Source: a virus
Taxonomy: Duplodnaviria; Caudoviricetes
Length of the DNA stretch: 64,000 nt
Virus record (IMG/VR): IMGVR_UViG_3300035491_000281
Reading direction: 5' to 3' (one strand)
The notes below the pieces were generated by a model. It searched no databases. It worked only from the letters and a program-made list of their open reading frames with translations, and was not told the DNA's origin. Positions 5,247 through 57,192 of this stretch are shown here, one piece after another. Position numbers and translations under genes: made by a program. The first letter of the stretch is position 1. Each line of letters starts with the position of its first letter.

Positions 5247-6113
5247 TTAGGCCACCGCGCGCAGGGCCTTGAGTTTCTTCAGATGGCTGCTGTGGGCGGT
5301 ACTCAGGCGGACGTCGTAAGGCGGGTTGTGTTTGTAATAACCCGGCCCGTTGTAGCGCTTTGCAAAGCCGGTCCAATCCAGTTCCTTCAACGCCCTCTGC
5401 AGGACGGGGTCTTGCTGAATGAAGCGCACAAAGGCTTCCAGCTGATCCCGCTCACTGCGTTGCATGCGGGTGACAAAGTCATCGATGCTCGCATACCCCA
5501 ACACCTTCCAGTGGTAACCCATGATCTGGTATCCGCCCCAACTGCACGACTCCAGCGCAGCTTCCCGATGAATGGCCTGAGCTTTCTGCAGGCGGTCGTA
5601 CTCGGCCTGACCCCCGCGGTACCCACCCGTTTTGGCATTCACCAACTCGGGGTGGTGGATTTCGTACAGACCCGGGTTCACCCCGTGTGCCCGCAGACGC
5701 TTGCGCATCACGTGGCGTTCGTACAGAATGGCTGCCGAACCGCTGCTGAAAAAACCGCTCCCTCGGGATTCTACCTCGTTCACCGCCATGACGGCCGCCA
5801 CCGAGACCTTCAGGGTTTTGGCCGCCCATTCCAGATCGGCTTGGGTCAGCAGGCGCCGATCGAAAGTCGGGTTGCGTAGGTGCGCCAACGTCTTCGGTCC
5901 GGCGATGCCATCGACCACCAGTCCCGCTTTCTTCTGAAACAGACGTACCGCCGTCTCCGTGCCGTCGCCGAACTTACCGTCGCGACCCGTAGTGAAACCG
6001 GCTTTGGTCAGAAGTTCTTGCAACTCCAGCACCGCTGGGCCGCACTCACCGTTACGTAACACCCCATCCTGGTCGGGTACGAAGTTACCGTCCCGAAAGA
6101 GTACTGCTGTCAT
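5247..6113 (-). CDS. Modular endolysin: N-terminal PG-binding domain plus N-acetylmuramidase (DUF3380-like)
   Basis: DGKFGDGTETAVRLFQKKAGLVVDGIAGPKT (PG_binding_1); AVNEVESRG, ILYERH, SCSWGGYQIMGYHW, FAKRYNGPGY (muramidase family motifs). Confidence 0.9.
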   Translation of the reverse strand: MTAVLFRDGNFVPDQDGVLRNGECGPAVLELQELLTKAGFTTGRDGKFGDGTETAVRLFQKKAGLVVDGIAGPKTLAHLRNPTFDRRLLTQADLEWAAKTLKVSVAAVMAVNEVESRGSGFFSSGSAAILYERHVMRKRLRAHGVNPGLYEIHHPELVNAKTGGYRGGQAEYDRLQKAQAIHREAALESCSWGGYQIMGYHWKVLGYASIDDFVTRMQRSERDQLEAFVRFIQQDPVLQRALKELDWTGFAKRYNGPGYYKHNPPYDVRLSTAHSSHLKKLKALRAVA

Positions 6114-47973: not shown

Positions 47974-49516
47974 CGTTTACCTCACGAATGTCATCGGCGT
48001 CGGCCGAGGCCGGGGCTTCGTCGATCGGCTGGGGTGCGATGTCCGGGCTCACCGGGCGGTCGTACAGCAGCGCCTCGAACGGCAGCGAGCTGACCTGCTG
48101 GGCCAACCAAGCGGCGATCATTTCCACCGCAGCGATGGTGGCCACCTCGCGGGGCGGCAGGTCCCCTTGATCGGCCGCGATCCGGTCCATGGCGTCGAGG
48201 AAGCTGCGATACGGAGTGTTGGGATAGTAGACCTCACACACCAACTTGGAGATGACGCGGTTGATGTCGTGCAGGTCTTCTTCCTGTACCGACTGCAGTA
48301 GCTTGGCTACCCGTCCTTCCAGTTCCGGTGCGCTGATGTCTTTCGGCAACAGCTCACGCACGTCTTGTGGTGGTACCAGCAGCAAGGTACGCAGGTGACT
48401 GCGACGCTGACGCAGGTAGTTGTCCAGCCGCGACTGGCGAATCAGGTAATGCTTGCGCTCCCACACCGCAATCAGGTCAGCCTGAACCGCCGTCAAATCG
48501 GCAGCATGGGTCCGGGCCGGGTCAGCGATGGCTGCTCCCAGCAGTGCCTTGACGTCGCCGCCGCGGGAGAGCCAGTCCGGGTAAACGTCCTGATTCACTA
48601 CCACCACTACCCGACCGTCGGTCATGGGTTGTTCGGCTTCGTAACGCCACACCACGCGCTGGCGGGTACGAGCCTGAGCACGCTTGACGTAACCCTGGGC
48701 CAGCTGAGCCCCGAAGTACTGGTGTTGCAGCAGGATCGCGTGTTCCCACTCGTCGAGGCTGACGCCTTCGCCGGTCACGTCCTGCGGGTTTTCCAGCAGG
48801 TAATGGGTCAGCAGGTAAGCGGTCAGCACGGCATCGACGTTGAACGGGAAACCGCCCAGATCGCGGAAGCTCAGCTGCTGTGCCGTCAGCGAGCGGGCCG
48901 TGCCGAACAGTCGGCTCCACACCAGGCGCAGGGTATCAGCTCCAACCCCACAGGCCCAATCGGCCGTCAGGGCCGCGTCGACGTGGCGGTTGGCACTGAG
49001 CCACTGTACCAGCGTTTCCACCGAAGGCGTCGCGATCAGGAAGCTGCGGTAGGCCTCAGCCTGGGGCACGCTCAGGTAGCGGTCCGCGATATGGCTGGTC
49101 AGTCCCGGCTCATCGTGGATCTTGTGCAGCACCAGCGGCTTGACCTCGATCTGAGCCAGGCGGCTGACTTCACTGCGGCTGTCATAGCCACTGCGAATAG
49201 CCTTGCAGGTTGGGATCACGGCTTCGCGCACGGTAGTCAGCATGCGCTCCAGGCCAAAGCTCATGAGTTCAACCAGCTGGTCGAATTCATCCGCGGCCAG
49301 GTCGGTGACCTTGGCGTTGAGGTGGCGGAAGTTTTCCACTACCTGGTCGGTACGCTCTCCTGAAAGCTCACGATGCTCAGCCTGCAGTGGGGCGCGGAAA
49401 TGATCGGCCATCACCGCCACGGGAAAGTTCGGCGACTTCGGCCGCAGCAGCAGACCGTTGGCGGTCAGGGTTTCGGCCAGCGGACGGGCGACCGTTACCG
49501 TAGAGGGTTTGAACAT
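47945..49516 (-). CDS. Conserved phiKZ-like protein (gp177-like position)
   Basis: 523 aa, AGGAG SD; synteny. Confidence 0.7.
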   Translation of the reverse strand: MFKPSTVTVARPLAETLTANGLLLRPKSPNFPVAVMADHFRAPLQAEHRELSGERTDQVVENFRHLNAKVTDLAADEFDQLVELMSFGLERMLTTVREAVIPTCKAIRSGYDSRSEVSRLAQIEVKPLVLHKIHDEPGLTSHIADRYLSVPQAEAYRSFLIATPSVETLVQWLSANRHVDAALTADWACGVGADTLRLVWSRLFGTARSLTAQQLSFRDLGGFPFNVDAVLTAYLLTHYLLENPQDVTGEGVSLDEWEHAILLQHQYFGAQLAQGYVKRAQARTRQRVVWRYEAEQPMTDGRVVVVVNQDVYPDWLSRGGDVKALLGAAIADPARTHAADLTAVQADLIAVWERKHYLIRQSRLDNYLRQRRSHLRTLLLVPPQDVRELLPKDISAPELEGRVAKLLQSVQEEDLHDINRVISKLVCEVYYPNTPYRSFLDAMDRIAADQGDLPPREVATIAAVEMIAAWLAQQVSSLPFEALLYDRPVSPDIAPQPIDEAPASADADDIREVNDEAAPATGA

Positions 49517-49527
49517 GACGCGACTCC

Positions 49528-49731
49528 TTAACCACCAAAATGCTTGGCCAGACGCGAGGCCAAGAGTTCTTGAATGTCGGCGACCGACTGCGCTTCCCCA
49601 CGGATGTGGTTGGACACGGCATCGGACCCCATGACTTTCTGCAGGGTTGCAGCACCCAGTTCGAGACTGGCGGTAATTACCGCCAGGTTCTCGTTGAGCG
49701 CGGCATCAGGACTTTCTTTGGGCTTTGCCAT
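49528..49731 (-). CDS. Small hypothetical protein
   Basis: 67 aa, GAGG SD, overlaps the RNAP stop. Confidence 0.55.
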   Translation of the reverse strand: MAKPKESPDAALNENLAVITASLELGAATLQKVMGSDAVSNHIRGEAQSVADIQELLASRLAKHFGG

Positions 49732-52291
49732 TGACTTTTCCTCGATAGACAGCGGCTACATGTTTGGACAGGACCCGCAACAACGTGTTGGTGGTTCCTA
49801 TCAGTTTTGGTGAGAGCACCTTTCGGTCTTCAATACTGGTATTGCCGAAGATGGCATCGAGGGGGTCCCCAGACTCGGTGGTGTTGGTCCCTTGGAAGAC
49901 CCGCGAAATCACCGTCTTCATCTGGTTGCCGAAGACACCTTTATCACCAACCCCGGCAGGAATGTCGTGGTCGATGTACACCAGAATCGCCATGGTGTCC
50001 GGATCAAGGGCTTTGCCTTTGACGCGGAAGCTGGTATCAACCTGGCCGGTGAAGGCCGGTTCACCCAGGGCCCGTGCCCGGCGCTTGCGTTCCTTGTCCG
50101 ATTCCCGAGCCAGCGCCTGCAGATTGTCCGACAGGTCTTCCAGCTCCCCATGATAGAAACATTCCACGCGGCTGACGTGACCGACTACCTTCGCCCGCGG
50201 GGTCATGGCAGCCATCCGGCGCAGAGTATCGAGCGCCGCTTCGTCAAAGAGCGGGTTGTTCGCGGTTTCCGGGTCCTCGATCGTACATAGAATTGTCTCC
50301 AGGTCGACATGGTCGCCCTCTCTGACCAGATTATGCACCAGTTGATCGAAGCGCACTTCAATCGTCCGGATCTCGGTGGTTTGGGTTGTGAGCTTATCCG
50401 CCACCGCTTGCGAGATGGCCGAGCCGTCTTCTAAGGTGTCGATGCAATCGATCAGTGCCGTGCGCACCAACACCCCGGCTTTCCACACCACCTGATTCGG
50501 ATTGAACCGATCGGGCGTAAAGAACTTGTGGTTGTAGGCGAGGATATCCCCGCGCTGGACCTTATCTCCTTTCTTCAGGTCGGTGACAACTTCGTGCGGG
50601 TAGGTAACCCCGGCGGCATTGCCGAAGCGTTTGCCCAACTCCACCCGGGTCTCACTACCGTCTTGGTACCGGACGGTGAGCGAGCGTTTGCTGACATCGA
50701 CAACTTCCCCGTCTTGCTCGGCGCTGCTAGCGAAGATGCTAGTGGTGCGCTGCGCGACGATTTGGTCGTAGCCGGTGCTCCAGGGTTGTGGTTGATAGCC
50801 GTTGGCGAACACCCCCTGTTGTTGCTGGATCGGGATGAAGTTAATCCGCTTGGGATCGTCGTGGTCTGCGGCTGGCGCCAGCAGGGCTGACGAGGACAAC
50901 AGTTTGCAGGCCCCATCCCGCTCTTTATCGAACGGTCGGGTTACACCACGCAGGTTGGTGAGGTTGGCATCTGGTGCTAGGTAAGCCACCACCCCCACGT
51001 CGCCCGAGTCTACCGTCGACTCCGAGACTACCCCGACGTCGCTCTGATGGTAGATGCGGGTGCGCTCCACCATCGACTTACCCCCGCGTCCACCGTCGCC
51101 CCGGTAGGTCATGACTTCCTGCTCGCGCAGGTTAGCCAGCGGGTTAGACTCCTCCACCGGTGACACCGCAGGGTCCTGCACCACCTTCTGCCAGACTGCG
51201 TGTGGGTTCAGCTCGACCGCGTTCTCACCAACCCCGATGCGGGCGTTGAAGGTTTTGGCAGCGCGGGTCAGCTCCCCGTAGACCATCCCGGCAAAGCGCT
51301 CGTAGCCCCGGTAGCGCATGAACGCCCCGTCGACTTCTTCCGGTGAGTAGTCGTTTTGCAACAGCTCCACCGACCGCAGCACCAGCGGCAGGAACTCGAC
51401 CGGTTCACCCATCTGCTCCAGCAGGCCACGCGTGATCGGGTCAACCCACGAGGTAAACAACGCCTCGATTTCCCGCAGGTAGCGTACCCCCAAGCCCGCT
51501 CCTTCCATCAGTCGGTAGTAAACGTCCTTGCGATCGAAGTCCCACACCGAGTATTGCTTGAGGATGTCGTGGTACCGGTTCAGACCGGCCAACACCATGG
51601 CCGAACGCTGATCCAACCGGGAGAACACCAAGACTTCATCTTCAAACGTCAGGGCGTATTCATCGGCCTGCTGGATGTTGCGCTCACCCCGGCGGAAGCG
51701 GGTGACCTCACAACCCAAGTGGTTGATCAGATTGGTCAGCCCGAGGTGGTAGGCCAACACGAACCCCACCGGCAGCGATTTGTTCGACACCGACATCTCA
51801 GCCACTTCCAACGGCGCACCGGCGGCCGAGATCCCCAGCACGTCGTGCACGGTACCCAACACTTCCAGTCCGTCGTTGGTGTGCAGGTAAAAGGTGTTGT
51901 TATAATCCACCAACACCGGCATCCCCTGCAGGGTACCCACCATCACCTGCTCGCTGGTTTCGAACAGTTTGATGTTCAAGCCGGCCGTATCGGCAAAGTG
52001 CTGCTCCCGGTTGCGGTAATCGAAGAAGAAGCGGATCTCCCCACTGTTGAACTGCGAGAAACGCTGGGCCAGCAGGGTATAAATCCGTGGCAGGCGTTCG
52101 GTCATGACGAACACGTCTGAGAATCGCAGATCGGTGATGCGCTCATCCGCCGGGTCCACACCCCGTTCCGTGATTACGCGGGTCAGCCAGCGACCGTAGT
52201 TGTTCACCGACCGCTCCGACCGGTCGACGAAGGTCTTGTTGTAGTACGACGTCAGGGCGACACGCACCGGACTTACCTTGCGAATTGGTAG
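49706..52291 (-). CDS. Virion RNA polymerase beta subunit (phiKZ gp178-like), exon 2
   Basis: HQSDVGVVSESTVDSGDVG, HDDPKRINFIPIQQQQ, EDGSAIS, GVGDKGVFGNQMKTVISRV RpoB-equivalent motifs. The ORF-track ATG (52294-52292) ends in the intron omega-G. Confidence 0.9.
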   Translation of the reverse strand, partial: LPIRKVSPVRVALTSYYNKTFVDRSERSVNNYGRWLTRVITERGVDPADERITDLRFSDVFVMTERLPRIYTLLAQRFSQFNSGEIRFFFDYRNREQHFADTAGLNIKLFETSEQVMVGTLQGMPVLVDYNNTFYLHTNDGLEVLGTVHDVLGISAAGAPLEVAEMSVSNKSLPVGFVLAYHLGLTNLINHLGCEVTRFRRGERNIQQADEYALTFEDEVLVFSRLDQRSAMVLAGLNRYHDILKQYSVWDFDRKDVYYRLMEGAGLGVRYLREIEALFTSWVDPITRGLLEQMGEPVEFLPLVLRSVELLQNDYSPEEVDGAFMRYRGYERFAGMVYGELTRAAKTFNARIGVGENAVELNPHAVWQKVVQDPAVSPVEESNPLANLREQEVMTYRGDGGRGGKSMVERTRIYHQSDVGVVSESTVDSGDVGVVAYLAPDANLTNLRGVTRPFDKERDGACKLLSSSALLAPAADHDDPKRINFIPIQQQQGVFANGYQPQPWSTGYDQIVAQRTTSIFASSAEQDGEVVDVSKRSLTVRYQDGSETRVELGKRFGNAAGVTYPHEVVTDLKKGDKVQRGDILAYNHKFFTPDRFNPNQVVWKAGVLVRTALIDCIDTLEDGSAISQAVADKLTTQTTEIRTIEVRFDQLVHNLVREGDHVDLETILCTIEDPETANNPLFDEAALDTLRRMAAMTPRAKVVGHVSRVECFYHGELEDLSDNLQALARESDKERKRRARALGEPAFTGQVDTSFRVKGKALDPDTMAILVYIDHDIPAGVGDKGVFGNQMKTVISRVFQGTNTTESGDPLDAIFGNTSIEDRKVLSPKLIGTTNTLLRVLSKHVAAVYRGKVNGKAQRKS

Positions 52292-53838
52292 CATCCCAAT
52301 TCAAAATGGACCATATCTTCTTCCCAGAGGGAAGCCTACCGTTTCGGAATCCACTTAATGGATTCCTACTCTACTCACTTTAATCGCGTTTGGGCGACCA
52401 CCTGACTTTAGACAGGTGTCATTAGGCAGTTTCCTGCTGTAGCTTTCGATGGCCTCTGAGCACACTCCGTAGGGATCATCCCTGTAGGAGCTTCGCTGCG
52501 TCGGTTGTGCCAACCGCTGACGTTTTTACCGTGCTCACCGCTTCCATTACTGGGGTGAGTGTTACACTCAGTTTCCTGGTGTAAGTGGTAGACAGCTGGT
52601 TATAGGCAGGTTCCCGCAATTAGGTAGGTTTTCTAGTAGAGTATTGCTACTCTACGCGGACCATGTGTTAGTGATAGTTAAGCTCTCATCAAATGTGTGT
52701 CCAGTCGCTCGCAGAACGGTTTCCAAGGCAATCTCCACACCCTCGTGTTTCGATAACCAGTAACCTAGTCTTAGCAAGGAATATCCTCCCTGCTCAGCGA
52801 TGACCTTCTTCACTTTGTCACTTTCGACGGTTTGCTTGAAATATAACTCACCGCCAAAACGTTCAACCGGCTTGAAATGTTGTTGCCCTTGGTATTCGAT
52901 CAGAAGCCCGTAATCCGGAAGGAAGAAATCGTAGCGATACAGGTAGGGGTCTACCTTGTATTCTTGGACATGGTTTATACCGTGACGCTCAAGAAATACC
53001 CGTATACGGGTTTCGCCTTTTGATTCCTTACACCGTGGACAACCACCACCCGATGAGGTGTGGCTATTCGGTGTTATCCAGAAAGACCCGTGCTCGAAAC
53101 AGATTACTTCTACCTTTTCCTTACTTGTGGTATAGACCACGTTAGAGTAGTCGTATCTGTCACCATGGGTTTTTATAGCCTGTTGAATAAACTCATCTTT
53201 GTTCGACCGATTCCTGACAAGATAACAATGCTTACACCCACTTCCGCTGAGATGCACTCGCGGTTTCTGTTGAAACTCGCCGTGACTCGGACAGACGATG
53301 GTTACCGCCGAATCACCTGCCATGTAAGCAACTTTAGAGTAATCGTAGACAGCGCCATGCACTACCCGCGAACGAGCAATGAATTCGTTAATACCCATGC
53401 GGTCATTTTCACGATAGCAACCGGGACATCCTGTACCTCTGGTGTAGTGTAGATACGGCACGGTTTGGAAGACCCCGTGCGTCGGACAGATGACCTCAAC
53501 TTTCGTGGTTGAGTTAACTATCCGCACTAAGCTGTAGTCGTACCTTTCCCCATGTAGTCGTTTAGACCGTTCGAGGAAATCCTGCGGTGTGAGTTGCTTA
53601 CCGCAGCTTTTACACCCCACCGTAGATCGCAAGAAGTGCTGAGGACAAACCTCAAAATCGCCATGAGTTGGGCATGTAACAATTACTTTTTCGCGTTTGG
53701 TTCTGTAAACCGTCTTGTCGTATAGGAAACGATCACCATACCTGCGTTTGGCTCGCTTGATGAATTTTTCTGGTGAGAGTCTCTTCTGTGTCATCACTAA
53801 CCCCACTGATGAAATACCACATCATCGTGGGAGTTTTA
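52292..53838 (-). ncRNA. Group I self-splicing intron (IA-like), 1,547 nt
   Basis: 5' exon ends in U (GAU|UAA); intron ends in G (AUG|CUA); IGS GUCCGCG pairs with exon CGCGGAU; P AAUUGCGGGAA, Q ACGCAGC, R CUCAGAGGCCAU, S AAGAUAUGGUCC; splicing restores QRAD-LPIRKV in frame. Confidence 0.92.
52652..53794 (-). mobile_element. Intron-encoded putative homing endonuclease: four CPxHG/GCxxC Zn repeats (DUF723-like) plus Vsr/EDxHD-like PD-(D/E)xK nuclease
   Basis: Four repeats F...(S/A)...HG..YDYS.V.Y....KV.I.CP.HG.F...P..H..G.GC..C; C-terminal ESKGE.RI..FL, YDFFLP, LLIEYQGQQH. Visibly more AT-rich than flanking genes. Confidence 0.82.
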
Positions 53839-55542
53839 ATCCGCGCGCTGCAAGCGCATCTTGTAAGTCACGCCGTTAGAGATGAACCGGCCATCGTCAT
53901 CCACCACCGGGAGGCGGAAACGCAGCGTCGATTGCCGACCCCGAACCGGCTTGACGGTCACCGTGTGGATCTCGTAATGGTTCATGGCGTCGCGAACGGT
54001 TTCGACGCTATAATCCTTGACAGCTACACCCTGGCTCTGGATGGCCAGAACCGCACTGACGATGTCCTTACGTAGCACCTTGCGAACGTACTTCTTCTGC
54101 AAGCCTTTGAGCTTGGAGGACAGCATGGACTTGTCCGGAATCGTACTGCGGTTCGGGAAATCCGGTTCGTCCGGCAGTGCCAGATCGTCATCAGTCACGT
54201 CCAGCATACTTTCCAGAGAAGCGCCGGAGCCGTAGGGGTCCTTCAGACGCTTGTAGGTTTCGGCATCAGCCAGGGCGCGTTGGTAGGCCTTGGGGGACAT
54301 CAGTCCCACCTCGTGCAGCTCCCAGGCTTTTGCGGCGACCCCTTGGGTCAACCGTTCATCCAGCGACGGTGGCTCCGTGGCCTCGACCGCGTCGCCCTGT
54401 TCCTCCGCCGGCAACAGTACGTCAGCCGGCTCGGCCGCGATGGGTTGTGCAGGGGTGGTCAAGCTAGGCGCTACCGGTGGGCTTTTCGGTTCCGGCAGCC
54501 AGAGGTCATTAAGACCCGGCAGAGCCAAGGCTTCTACCAGTTCCTGCTGGGCCTGGGGTGCTTCCTTGGCCGTGGCTTCACGCGCCGACTGGGCCGCAGG
54601 CAGTTGTTCTGCAGGGACCGGTTTGGTGCCAGCGGCAGGAACCTCGGCAGGCGCTTCGCCGGTCCCCGCATCCAGCTGGGTAACCCCGGAGAGCAGGTCG
54701 CGCAGGCCATGCAGCAGTACCAGAAAACGACGCTGCAGGACAGTGCCCGACAGGCCGGTGTCGCCATCCACATCGGCATCCTTGCGCCATTCATCGATCA
54801 CCCCCAGGTTAATGATGAAGAAATACCCTTTGGCTTTGACGATGAAATGAATCTTCGCCAGGGCATCCTCCGACAGCGTTGCCAGGTGAGACGCTTGACG
54901 GTTGTCGCCCAGCCAATGCCAGAGGTCCAACAGATGCAGGGCGGCGTTGGTGTTGAACACCTCCAGGTTCTTCTGGTTCAGGCCGTTCTGCATACGCAGG
55001 AACTGTTCGTGGGTGGGGATGGCGTCGGGCAGGTGCAGGTCGATGAACTGGTTCCAACCAAAGCGCTCATGCGTCTGTTGTACCCGGTCCCAGAACGTGG
55101 CGGCGACATTCTTCCAGCGGAAGTAGCCAGCCTTGAACGACGGGATATACCGATACAGCGAGGACAGCAACGCGTAGTTGACAATCAACAGGTTCTTCGG
55201 GTTGATGGTCAGGGCTTCGTCCTTGCGCAGCGGCTTGAACAGGCGATTCTTACGACGGAATTCGTTCTGCAGCAACATGGGGTTGAGCACGGTACGGCGG
55301 GGACCGCCCTCCAGATGCTCCAACTGGGCGACGTGCTCGATAAACACCCGCCCACCCTGCAGGTCGGACAACAGCGGGTCTTGCGGGGACGGTCCCATCA
55401 GCGCGCTGTCATCGGGTAGGAACTGATAGATGCTTTCCAGCGGTAGGGTCAGCTTGGCGATCGGAATCAGGCGCGGCCGGGAGAGGTGCGCCCGTTCGCG
55501 CACCCCGGTTTGCCGATAGAACAACGGTTGTTTTAAACGCAT
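53839..55542 (-). CDS. Virion RNA polymerase beta subunit (phiKZ gp178-like), exon 1
   Basis: 568 codons ending ...FISNGVTYKMRLQRAD at the intron 5' splice site; AGGA SD. Confidence 0.85.
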
Positions 55543-55551
55543 GGGACGTTC

Positions 55552-57192
55552 CTAGTTCGGGCCAGTCATGAACCGCATGGTCAGGGCCAGGGTGTGGATC
55601 TCGACACTGAAGGCCAGACCCCCACCCGCTTTGACGTAGGCGGCGCGGGTTTTGAAGAAGCGATCGGTTTCATCGACGGCTTCTTTGGAATAGAGCGAGT
55701 TGAAGCTGACGGTGTCACCGTCGAAGTCGCCCCCGAGGGCGGCCAGACGGGCTGGCGATACCGAGGTCGAGTCGTGGTACTGCGTCACCACCCCTTCCTT
55801 AATGATGGGGTATTCCAGCGCTATCGGCGCCTCAGGGTCGCGTTCCCAGTCATCGCCCAGGGCGTAGCGCAGCTCCCCGGTAACAGTGGTCTTGACATAA
55901 TGCTTGGTCGGGTAGGAGCTGTTGTAGTTCTCCACCGGGTAGCGGGTGACGAAGGCACTGTTCTTGTACCACATACCCAAACCACTCAAGTAAATCAACT
56001 CCACATAGGTGAGCGGGCGGACGTACTTGGCGTTAAAGTCCTGCGGTAACTCATCGATGCTGCGCAGGAGCTTGTACTCGGCATTGGGGCTCAGGTACAC
56101 CAGGGCCAGGTAATGACCGGCGATCATCACCGGTTTGTCACGCTTGTCGATCACCGACAGTTCGTTGATGACTTTATCCAAGCCCTCTTCAGTGCTCCAG
56201 CGGTCCATCTCCTCGTTGGAGATTTCCACCCAAACCCGCTTGAGGGTTTTCGGATCTACCAGCTCGACGTTGTTGGAGGTGGTGTCAAACACCTGCCCCA
56301 CCAGGCCTGTCTTCAGGTGGTAGATGGTCTTGGGTAGGACCGAACGTGCGGCTTGGTACAGACCGATCACGGTGTCGTTGAACCGCGGGCGGTTGGGGGC
56401 GTCCAGATCGGCAGTGGAGGTATCCAGCGAAGAGATCACGTTCCGGGTACCGTTGAATACCCGACGCGACGCCCAGCGGCTCTGAATGAAGCCACCCTTA
56501 CCAGAGATCAACCGCTCGATGTGCTCGTAGATCGCCACCAGCTTCAGTGTCAGCGTGTGGCGGGTGCGGTCATAGGCGCTGAGGTCATCGCTAGCTCGGG
56601 CTTTTTCGGGGAGGTTACGCACCAGCATCAAGACCCCTTGGTAGATCTCGTTGATCTCATCCATGGAGACCCGGCCGTCCACGTCGATCTCGGCATCACG
56701 CAGGCCCGCCGGCATCACCAGCAGGTTATCAAGCAAAGCTTTGTCGCGGTACTTCTCCAGCAGCTGTACTCGCAGGTCACGGGTGGCCGAGCCCGTCTTG
56801 GCTGGGCGCAGTTCGGCAAAATGCTGAACGAAGAAATGATAACCGGTTTGCCCGTCCAGTTCGGTGGCCTTTTCGAAATCTGCTGCCTCGGGGTTCCATT
56901 TGGCGTAACCCTTACCGGAGAGGATGTCGGCGTACAGGCCTTTGAGTTTGATCAGGCGAGTGAACACCACCGGGTGGAACACCGGCACCCGCAGCGCAAT
57001 ATAACCGAAACGGCGGTCACGGTCAGGGTCGCCCACCCGACCGAACGTCAGCGTGGAAAACAAACCGTCGTCATGGAAATTACCACCGGGGCCGTCGAAG
57101 ATATCCAGGGTGGTAACCTGACGCAGCCGTCGCAGTTGTTCCGGGGACGGATTCAGTAACGACAAGTTGAGGGGGAGTAGTGCTTTTTGCAT
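55552..57192 (-). CDS. Virion RNA polymerase beta-prime subunit with catalytic loop (phiKZ gp180-like)
   Basis: GGDFDGDT catalytic motif, KGGFIQSRWASRRVFNGTRNVIS, VTRYP, DGLFSTLTFG. Confidence 0.93.
   Translation of the reverse strand: MQKALLPLNLSLLNPSPEQLRRLRQVTTLDIFDGPGGNFHDDGLFSTLTFGRVGDPDRDRRFGYIALRVPVFHPVVFTRLIKLKGLYADILSGKGYAKWNPEAADFEKATELDGQTGYHFFVQHFAELRPAKTGSATRDLRVQLLEKYRDKALLDNLLVMPAGLRDAEIDVDGRVSMDEINEIYQGVLMLVRNLPEKARASDDLSAYDRTRHTLTLKLVAIYEHIERLISGKGGFIQSRWASRRVFNGTRNVISSLDTSTADLDAPNRPRFNDTVIGLYQAARSVLPKTIYHLKTGLVGQVFDTTSNNVELVDPKTLKRVWVEISNEEMDRWSTEEGLDKVINELSVIDKRDKPVMIAGHYLALVYLSPNAEYKLLRSIDELPQDFNAKYVRPLTYVELIYLSGLGMWYKNSAFVTRYPVENYNSSYPTKHYVKTTVTGELRYALGDDWERDPEAPIALEYPIIKEGVVTQYHDSTSVSPARLAALGGDFDGDTVSFNSLYSKEAVDETDRFFKTRAAYVKAGGGLAFSVEIHTLALTMRFMTGPN

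Follow-up and report, generated by a model that had tools for sequence, protein, structure and literature searches.

A probable mobile group I intron in the virion-type RNA polymerase beta gene of an uncultured phage

An endonuclease-bearing intron in a virion RNA polymerase (RNAP) beta gene is already known from phage PhiPA3. The virion RNAP subunit concerned is gp211/209 in PhiPA3 and gp178 in phiKZ (Birkholz et al., Science 2024; PMC11620839), and the PhiPA3 gene holds an experimentally characterised group I intron that encodes gp210, an HNH nicking endonuclease (PMC11620839), which cuts phiKZ gp178, with a competitive advantage for PhiPA3 (PMC11620839; review PMC12908238). Here we analyse a 64,000-nt stretch of IMG/VR virus record IMGVR_UViG_3300035491_000281 (the whole stretch is called the window below), in which a gene of the same type is interrupted by an element of 1,547 nt (53838..52292, minus strand) that sits between codons 568 and 569. 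We put the probability at about 0.92 that this element is a mobile group I intron, at exactly these boundaries, in a virion-type RNAP beta gene. Its boundaries, the reading frame restored by its removal, a ribozyme fold with covariation, the fold of its nuclease and its patchy distribution among alleles are established in what follows. The locus resembles PhiPA3 gp211/gp210/gp209 in joining an endonuclease-bearing group I intron to an orthologous chimallivirus gene in a shared neighbourhood. An initial annotation of the window had given as background that phiKZ-like phages carry group I introns in RNAP genes, best described for the non-virion enzyme; this is out of date, given the characterised intron of the PhiPA3 virion RNAP beta gene (PMC11620839).

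Boundaries of the insert and the ribozyme core

The host gene is of the phiKZ-gp178/PhiPA3-gp211 type, a virion RNAP beta gene read on the minus strand. Exon 1 (53839..55542, minus strand; 568 codons of virion-type RNAP beta) ends in CAG CGC GCG GAT, its last base being 53839, and is directly followed by an in-frame TAA (53836..53838, minus strand), which is the first intron codon here and in all introns that we found at this site (5/5). At its other end the intron finishes with ...GAATTGGGATG at 52292, and exon 2 (49706..52291, minus strand; 861 codons plus stop) resumes with CTA CCA ATT CGC AAG from 52291, so that the 5' splice site follows U53839 and the terminal intron base is G52292. Joining 55542..53839 to 52291..49709 gives 568 + 861 = 1,429 amino acids (aa) without a stop (...QRAD-LPIRK...), and this protein is collinear with the intron-free allele of an IMG/VR relative, L006. 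The exon ends, the letters at both splice sites, the coordinates and the single 1,429-aa frame had all been given correctly, for the minus strand, by the initial annotation, which had also foreseen that automated gene calling would yield two truncated genes with a false ATG start. Indeed, the list of open reading frames (ORFs) contains a 568-aa frame (53836..55542), a 384-aa frame within the insert and an 862-aa frame (49706..52294), the last called from an ATG at 52294 that is in frame with exon 2 and consists of the last three intron bases. Truncated genes miscalled in this way are found in GenBank records of Vibrio phages with the same intron.

The two exon halves abut in one family profile, PHROG 3148 ('RNA polymerase beta subunit', 1,424 positions), where exon 1 covers 2-574 (E-value 3e-139) and exon 2 covers 575-1423 (1222 bits). 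Within exon 2, residues 380-585 align with residues 396-656 of Thermus beta. When 254-residue pieces from either side of the junction, the end of exon 1 and the start of exon 2, are used as tblastn queries against GenBank phages, the two sets of matches touch to the nucleotide in Noxifer (179395/179394), PhiPA3 (194457/194456) and PA7 (122693/122694). The gene of L006 is likewise unbroken, with 1,464 aa that read ...LQRAD/QPIRK... across the intron-free site (the slash marks the position of insertion here and below); in DNA letters, the site of this type is CAGCGCGCTGAC/CAACCCATCCGT. No homologue that is naturally split at 568/569 was found, and the intron-free ones (Noxifer, PhiPA3, PA7 and L006) are single continuous frames across the site, which is how the alignment to intronless homologues suggested in the initial annotation turned out. 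The insertion lies within a strongly conserved block, GRQSTxRFRLPVVDxDGRFxSNG...RLQRAD/xPIRKxxPxRVALTSYYNKTF. A megablast search of the region against GenBank phages gave no match, so that no close relative has been deposited there.

The group I intron model RF00028 matches 52280-52689 on the minus strand over its whole length (model 1-253) with 44 bits. For the region alone the E-value is 2e-9; for the whole window, where this is the sole match, it is 6e-8. A chance origin of the match is excluded, and the assignment to group I made in the initial annotation is borne out. From the 5' splice site onward, the element consists of the TAA, a hairpin, the endonuclease ORF, the guide, the paired regions P2, P3 and P4, the P5 domain, P6 and P7, followed by four hairpins, P3', P8, P7', a 16-nt tail and the terminal G52292. 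By RF00028 and RNAalifold, the ribozyme core (P2, P3, P4, an extended P5, P6, P7, the four hairpins and P8) occupies 52292..52654 on the minus strand. P1 is formed by the exon end CGCGGAU (53839..53845, minus strand) and the internal guide sequence GUCCGCG (52655..52661, minus strand), which overlaps the last codons of the endonuclease ORF; 53839-53845 pairs with 52661-52655, with a U.G pair at the splice site, and six of the seven pairs are conserved across all homologues. This helix and two further intron-internal pairs are present in the minimum-energy fold of a mini-intron from which the ORF was deleted. The P/Q/R/S elements align with the RF00028 consensus, and P7 joins GGCCA (52450..52454) to UGGUC (52309..52313), both on the minus strand, 52454-52450 pairing with 52313-52309, as five standard pairs in three introns.

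Introns at the same site were found in five cases: the window, two other IMG/VR sequences (L005 and L007), and the Vibrio jumbo phages Yong-XC31 (with its relatives) and pir03. All five share the identical codon boundary and the TAA as first codon, and in all of them the endonuclease and the ribozyme occur together. The Vibrio introns score 43-45 bits with RF00028 and have a core segment that is ~72% identical to that of the window. Covariation was assessed on an alignment of the cores of the window, L005 and L007 (416 columns). The RNAalifold consensus of these three closest cores contains 109 pairs, 33 of them compensatory, that is, changed on both sides; standard pairs fill 98.6% of the cells, compared with 32-40% after the 3' partners are displaced by 1-3 columns, a shift that leaves 1-6 compensatory pairs. 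The consensus recovers P3, P4, P5, P6 and P8 with compensatory changes, and P3, for example, reads CCUACC/GGUAGG in the window, CCUGUC/GGCAGG in L005 and CCCCCC/GGGGGG in L007. P1 and P7 covary between clades: P1 is GCGGAU/GUCCGC in the window clade and GUGGAU/GUCCAC in the Vibrio clade, and the GGCCA/UGGUC of P7 in the former corresponds to GACUA/UAGUC in the latter, one pair being altered on both sides. The initial annotation had described the 7-bp P1 with its U-G pair, the P/Q/R/S elements and a P7 of GGCCA/UGGUC covaried from the usual GACUA/UAGUC; the first two are present as described, and the usual form of the third is exactly what stands at the aligned Vibrio positions. P2, of 8 bp with a GCAA loop, is absent from L007 and from the Vibrio introns. 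The four hairpins, which follow the 5' strand of P7 and precede the 3' strand of P3 (alignment columns 234-334), covary, and the usual number is two; extra helices at this place suggest an IA-like architecture, tentatively of subgroup IA.

The exon side of P1 also differs between alleles. The three intron-containing alleles of the window clade end in GCG GAT, and the intron-free alleles in GCT, GCC or GGA followed by GAC, so that the splice-site U is absent from the latter. Judged by this choice of codons, which matches P1, the exons are adapted to the intron. RNAalifold in addition paired the guide with the P7 3' strand (columns 2-8/380-386), which we rejected as an artefact, the real P1 partner being omitted there. 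As a separate observation, the guide region (52655-52664, UGGUCCG) and the P7 3' strand region (52307-52315, UAUGGUCCA) share a nearly self-complementary GGUCC and are thus able to pair mutually, which may be a misfolding trap, or nothing.

At the 3' end, a hairpin of GAAUUGG/CCAAUUC extends across the splice site (52282..52302, minus strand) in both the minimum-energy and the consensus folds. It pairs the intron tail (52302-52296) with exon-2 bases +4 to +10 (52288-52282) and holds the terminal G in its loop. The L005 hairpin, GAAUCGG/CCGAUUC, carries a compensatory change that leaves the amino acid encoded by exon 2 unaltered, and the Vibrio introns have an ordinary internal hairpin in place of this intron-exon hairpin. 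The window clade may have replaced P9/P10 with the covarying intron-exon hairpin, whose loop contains the 3' splice site.

The encoded endonuclease and its movement

The endonuclease gene (52652..53794, minus strand; ATG at 53794, TAG at 52654-52652) encodes 380 aa and lies in the P1 loop. Pfam identifies four treble-clef (zinc-ribbon) modules, DUF723/CapR/DUF4379, in residues 1-260, and the PHROG matches of the protein are 559, 681 and 9084. In residues 255-384 Pfam finds no family, and neither Pfam nor NCBIfam gives the C-terminal domain a name. This domain was compared by structure, using an AlphaFold (AF2) model with a predicted local distance difference test score (pLDDT) of 81.8. VIA-align alone identified it: the best match is the catalytic domain of I-Bth0305I (3r3p_A; Z 11.7, root-mean-square deviation 2.6 A, 96/97 residues), followed by Vsr (1cw0_A, Z 11.3; 1vsr, Z 10.5) and a DUF559-like protein (Z 10.2). 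A Foldseek search of the PDB with the full-length model gave no match at E <= 0.001; by target, template-modelling (TM) scores are 0.61-0.71 for the Vsr-like fold, at E about 0.01. By sequence, phmmer found nothing among PDB entries at E up to 1. In an alignment of 11 sequences E265, D293 and E304 are invariant, and H310 and D333 are conserved in nearly all rows covering them; the correspondence of the EDxHD residues to E170/D196/H213/D222 of I-Bth0305I is by motif order, not by residue-level superposition. As modelled, the C-terminal domain is a Vsr-like EDxHD nuclease fold.

PHROG 559 carries the label 'HNH endonuclease', a class that we considered for this protein and rejected. The HNH motif and fold are absent, no HNH family is among the Pfam matches at E up to 5, the sole nuclease-like domain is the Vsr-like one, and the Cys/His pairs are part of the repeated treble-clef modules; the label is misleading for the window member. 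Phage 'Hef-type' endonucleases have been assigned to the EDxHD family, with I-Bth0305I as the prototype (PMC3239194), and some GenBank homologues of the window endonuclease are labelled 'Hef-like'. Relatives of the protein occur in more than 1,000 phage records, many of them with multiple copies, and in up to 17 places in Klebsiella phage KP13-7.

Ahead of the gene, a 5' hairpin (53799..53835, minus strand; RNAfold -16.7 kcal/mol) covers with its 3' arm a GGGG Shine-Dalgarno-like tract located 6 nt upstream of the endonuclease ATG. Equivalents of this hairpin are retained in L005 and L007 despite altered sequence. The ribosome-binding site of the endonuclease would be hidden in the 5' hairpin, which resembles the translational control of T4 I-TevI. 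Endonuclease activity, its target and the roles of the hairpins are presented here as predictions.

The distribution of the intron is patchy. In a host-gene tree built from exon-2 residues 1-470, alleles with the intron are intermixed with alleles that lack it, and the intron-free L004 groups with the window and L005. Identity to the window is lower for the endonuclease than for the host gene in both L005 (65 vs 71%) and L007 (50 vs 59%); the endonuclease thus diverges slightly faster than its host gene, which fits a long co-residence within the clade. The Vibrio endonucleases are about 40-41% identical to that of the window, and between the window and pir03 the endonuclease (41%) is closer than the exon of the host gene (34%), which hints weakly at transfer. 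The contigs of four DNA runs contained no joint skipping the intron, and no intron-free variant among near-identical strains.

These features suggest the following course of events. The pre-mRNA would fold such that the exon end GCGGAU pairs with the guide GUCCGC ~1.2 kb downstream, and a free guanosine bound at P7 would attack after U53839. The freed exon would then attack after G52292, joining ...QRAD to LPIRK... and restoring the 1,429-aa protein. Ribosomes would be kept out of the intron by the in-frame TAA at its border. The homing endonuclease would most likely cut intron-free alleles near the insertion site, and repair would copy the intron in.

Splicing, its alternatives and the genomic setting

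Several points weigh against a functional intron at this site. Splicing itself is predicted from sequence features. The 44 bits of the window copy are below the Rfam gathering score of 50 for RF00028; at gathering thresholds Rfam reports nothing in the window, and the match surfaces with E-value thresholds. P10 has at most 1-2 bp, an internal P9 hairpin is absent and the intron tail pairs with exon 2. Furthermore, ONT-cappable-seq saw no splicing for the predicted endonuclease-associated 'introns' of phiKZ (PMC10914365), so that prediction alone has failed before in this phage group, and beta/beta' genes are often naturally split in these phages, so that two polypeptides could still assemble. 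As to the score, the shortfall is likely due to the true P1 5' strand lying 1.2 kb upstream (the ORF being in the P1 loop), to the P7 pseudoknot being modelled as a single-stranded consensus that is altered here, and to the long insertions that lie in P5 and in the stretch from P7 to P3'. The orthologous L005 intron scores 59.2 bits, above the cut-off.

If splicing did not occur, the element could be a relic intron in a split gene, exon 1 being translated as far as the TAA and exon 2 starting with the ATG at 52294, and the two polypeptides would assemble into the polymerase. The score under the gathering threshold, the weak P10 and the phiKZ introns not seen splicing (PMC10914365) would all fit such a relic, as would the in-frame ATG exactly at the exon-2 border and the annotation notes of PhiPA3, which give gp273/274 as the 201phi2-1 counterpart of the beta gene. 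However, a dead ribozyme would not retain 98.6% pairing and 33 compensatory pairs among host genes that are 59-71% identical, and the covariation of P1 with its guide and of P7 across clades, together with exon codons tuned to P1, speaks against it as well. The ATG itself loses weight on comparison, since the exon-2 border of L007 is TTG; moreover, no Shine-Dalgarno-like tract precedes the ATG of the window, where the letters are GAAUUGGG and form part of the 3' hairpin. We consider a relic improbable. We give hardly any credence to a free-standing homing endonuclease gene between two separate genes, with an RF00028 match that is due to chance or to an unrelated structured RNA. Although such endonuclease genes are common in jumbo phages, and the >1,000 phage records with relatives of this ORF have them mostly outside RNAP genes, the flanking ORFs are abutting halves of one family profile, the model is matched over its full length (cmscan E 2e-9), and in five phages endonuclease and ribozyme are found together at this codon boundary.

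A mobile group I intron thus remains our preferred explanation, and it bears on how the gene should be annotated. The packaged RNAP subunit would be one 1,429-aa protein, not two truncated ones, and the same correction applies to pir03 and to Yong XC31/XC32/MS31/MS32, whose exons carry the labels 'RNA polymerase beta', 'hypothetical protein' or 'RNA polymerase alpha'. RNA self-splicing would be needed for the very enzyme with which infection starts, in a phage whose transcription, in a protein nucleus, would be separate from translation. The cultured Vibrio phages provide a direct experimental system.

The window belongs to an uncultured jumbo phage whose IMG/VR record, from a tar-pit metagenome, is 231 kb long and has terminal repeats. 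For 49500-55700 of the window, low-depth contigs that are ~99% identical come from runs X3 and X4 of a different study (2023). These contigs retain the intron and read across its 3' splice site, so that the lineage of this phage also occurs outside the tar-pit sample. A 630-aa ORF (G000:C1:47449-48897; L046) encodes a homologue of chimallin, with 47% identity to gp053, the nuclear shell protein of PhiPA3, and by this homology the phage probably forms a nucleus. Around the intron, the genes are arranged as in PhiPA3 gp213/212/211-209/208, the gp180-like and gp181-like neighbours of the beta gene belong to PHROG 2986 and 3201, as do PhiPA3 gp212 and gp213, and the window beta is 45-46% identical to PhiPA3 gp211. 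By sequence and gene order, the window gene is orthologous to the phiKZ gp178-type virion RNAP beta, and the presence of its product in the virion is assigned by orthology.

A separate beta gene of the non-virion RNAP (nvRNAP) type is located elsewhere in the genome, which also contains two more group I introns, both ORF-less, on the minus strand and above the Rfam cut-off. One lies in a non-virion-type RNAP beta-like gene (G000:C1:33661-33984; L001 1501-1824; RF00028 77.5 bits), whose exons match PHROG 3295 at 5-403 and 404-696. The other lies in the thymidylate synthase gene (G000:C1:107012-107255; L002 1501-1744; RF00028 59.5 bits), whose exons match PHROG 160 at 33-210 and 217-308; this gene is split as in phage T4 td.

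The beta gene is also interrupted at other positions in related phages, all near a DHDD/PKRIN motif (about window residues 1047-1052). In L008 (5476-6514) the PhiPA3 site is occupied by an insert whose ribozyme scores 63 bits and whose ORF has 256 aa. L007 has a second intron (5430-5804), ORF-less and scoring 78 bits, 4-5 codons past the PhiPA3 site, and L004 (5458-6616) is broken at this second position of L007, followed by an unrelated 363-aa ORF, with no RF00028 match within the locus. Together with the PhiPA3 site, these interruptions give at least three intron sites in the gene, at 568/569, ~1047/1048 and ~1051/1052 (window residues). After the PhiPA3 work, a second independent site with a different nuclease class suggests that conflicts over the beta gene are common. 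It is possible, though we hold it only tentatively and think it rather doubtful, that the chimallivirus virion RNAP beta gene is a multi-site battleground of introns with unrelated endonuclease classes, in which the EDxHD enzyme at 568/569 would be a gp210-like weapon against the intron-free gene of co-infecting phages and would have moved between distant lineages. As a side observation, in the Vibrio phages a group I intron that encodes an endonuclease also interrupts the neighbouring gp180-like RNAP gene (L042 1546-2871 in Yong XC31; L043 1581-2901 in pir03). RF00028 gives 69.9 (L042) and 40.7 bits (L043) for these introns, which are unannotated in the records, and the split aligns to residue 489/490 of the 546-aa protein of the window.

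Comparison with described introns

The intron of the window differs from that of PhiPA3 in its site and in its endonuclease. The PhiPA3 intron is inserted after a DD motif that corresponds to about window residue 1047/1048, whereas the window intron, at 568/569, is located ~480 codons upstream. While gp210 is an HNH nicking enzyme, the window ORF combines a Vsr-like EDxHD domain with zinc-ribbon repeats. The activity of the PhiPA3 endonuclease and its competitive effect are experimental, in contrast to the window endonuclease, which is known from sequence and model.

Closer in position are the introns of the Vibrio phages vB_VmeM-Yong XC31/XC32/MS31/MS32 and vB_pir03 (MK308674-7, MT811961), which have a homologous boundary, ...QKVD/xPIRKT..., with TAA as the first codon. 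As in the window, their endonuclease is placed in the P1 loop; unlike that of the window, they are AT-rich, lack P2 and have a canonical P7 (GACUA/UAGUC) and an internal P9 hairpin. The same-site intron is not annotated in these records. In the paper on pir03, the ORF is described as a homing endonuclease (HHpred match 3R3P) and exon 2 as 'RNA polymerase subunit alpha', and the intron is never mentioned; the exon-2 ORF (MT811961 39437-42001; L043 5999-8563) is the C-terminal two-thirds of a gp178-type beta.

With respect to the nuclease, the nearest described case is I-Bth0305I from the recA intron of Bacillus phage 0305phi8-36 (PMC3239194, PDB 3R3P), likewise a Vsr-like endonuclease in a phage group I intron. 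However, its DNA-binding part is of the NUMOD/helix-turn-helix kind, whereas the window ORF has four treble-clef repeats, and its ORF interrupts P5 of an intron in recA, whereas that of the window lies in P1 of an intron in an RNAP beta gene. Sequence similarity between I-Bth0305I and the window endonuclease is undetectable by phmmer.

The td intron of phage T4 is of the IA type: additional helices separate P7 from P3', and the 5' splice site is soon followed by an in-frame stop. Its endonuclease I-TevI, a GIY-YIG enzyme, is encoded in the P6 loop, and the ribosome-binding site of I-TevI is sequestered in a hairpin. The window intron is like td in its extra P7-P3' helices, its early in-frame stop and the hairpin over the endonuclease ribosome-binding site, and differs from it in endonuclease class, ORF loop, host gene and phage lineage. 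Our literature search found no paper describing an intron at site 568/569. An endonuclease-bearing intron in a virion RNAP beta gene is known already from PhiPA3; what is new here is the insertion site, the class of the endonuclease and the unannotated state of the intron in the Vibrio phage records.

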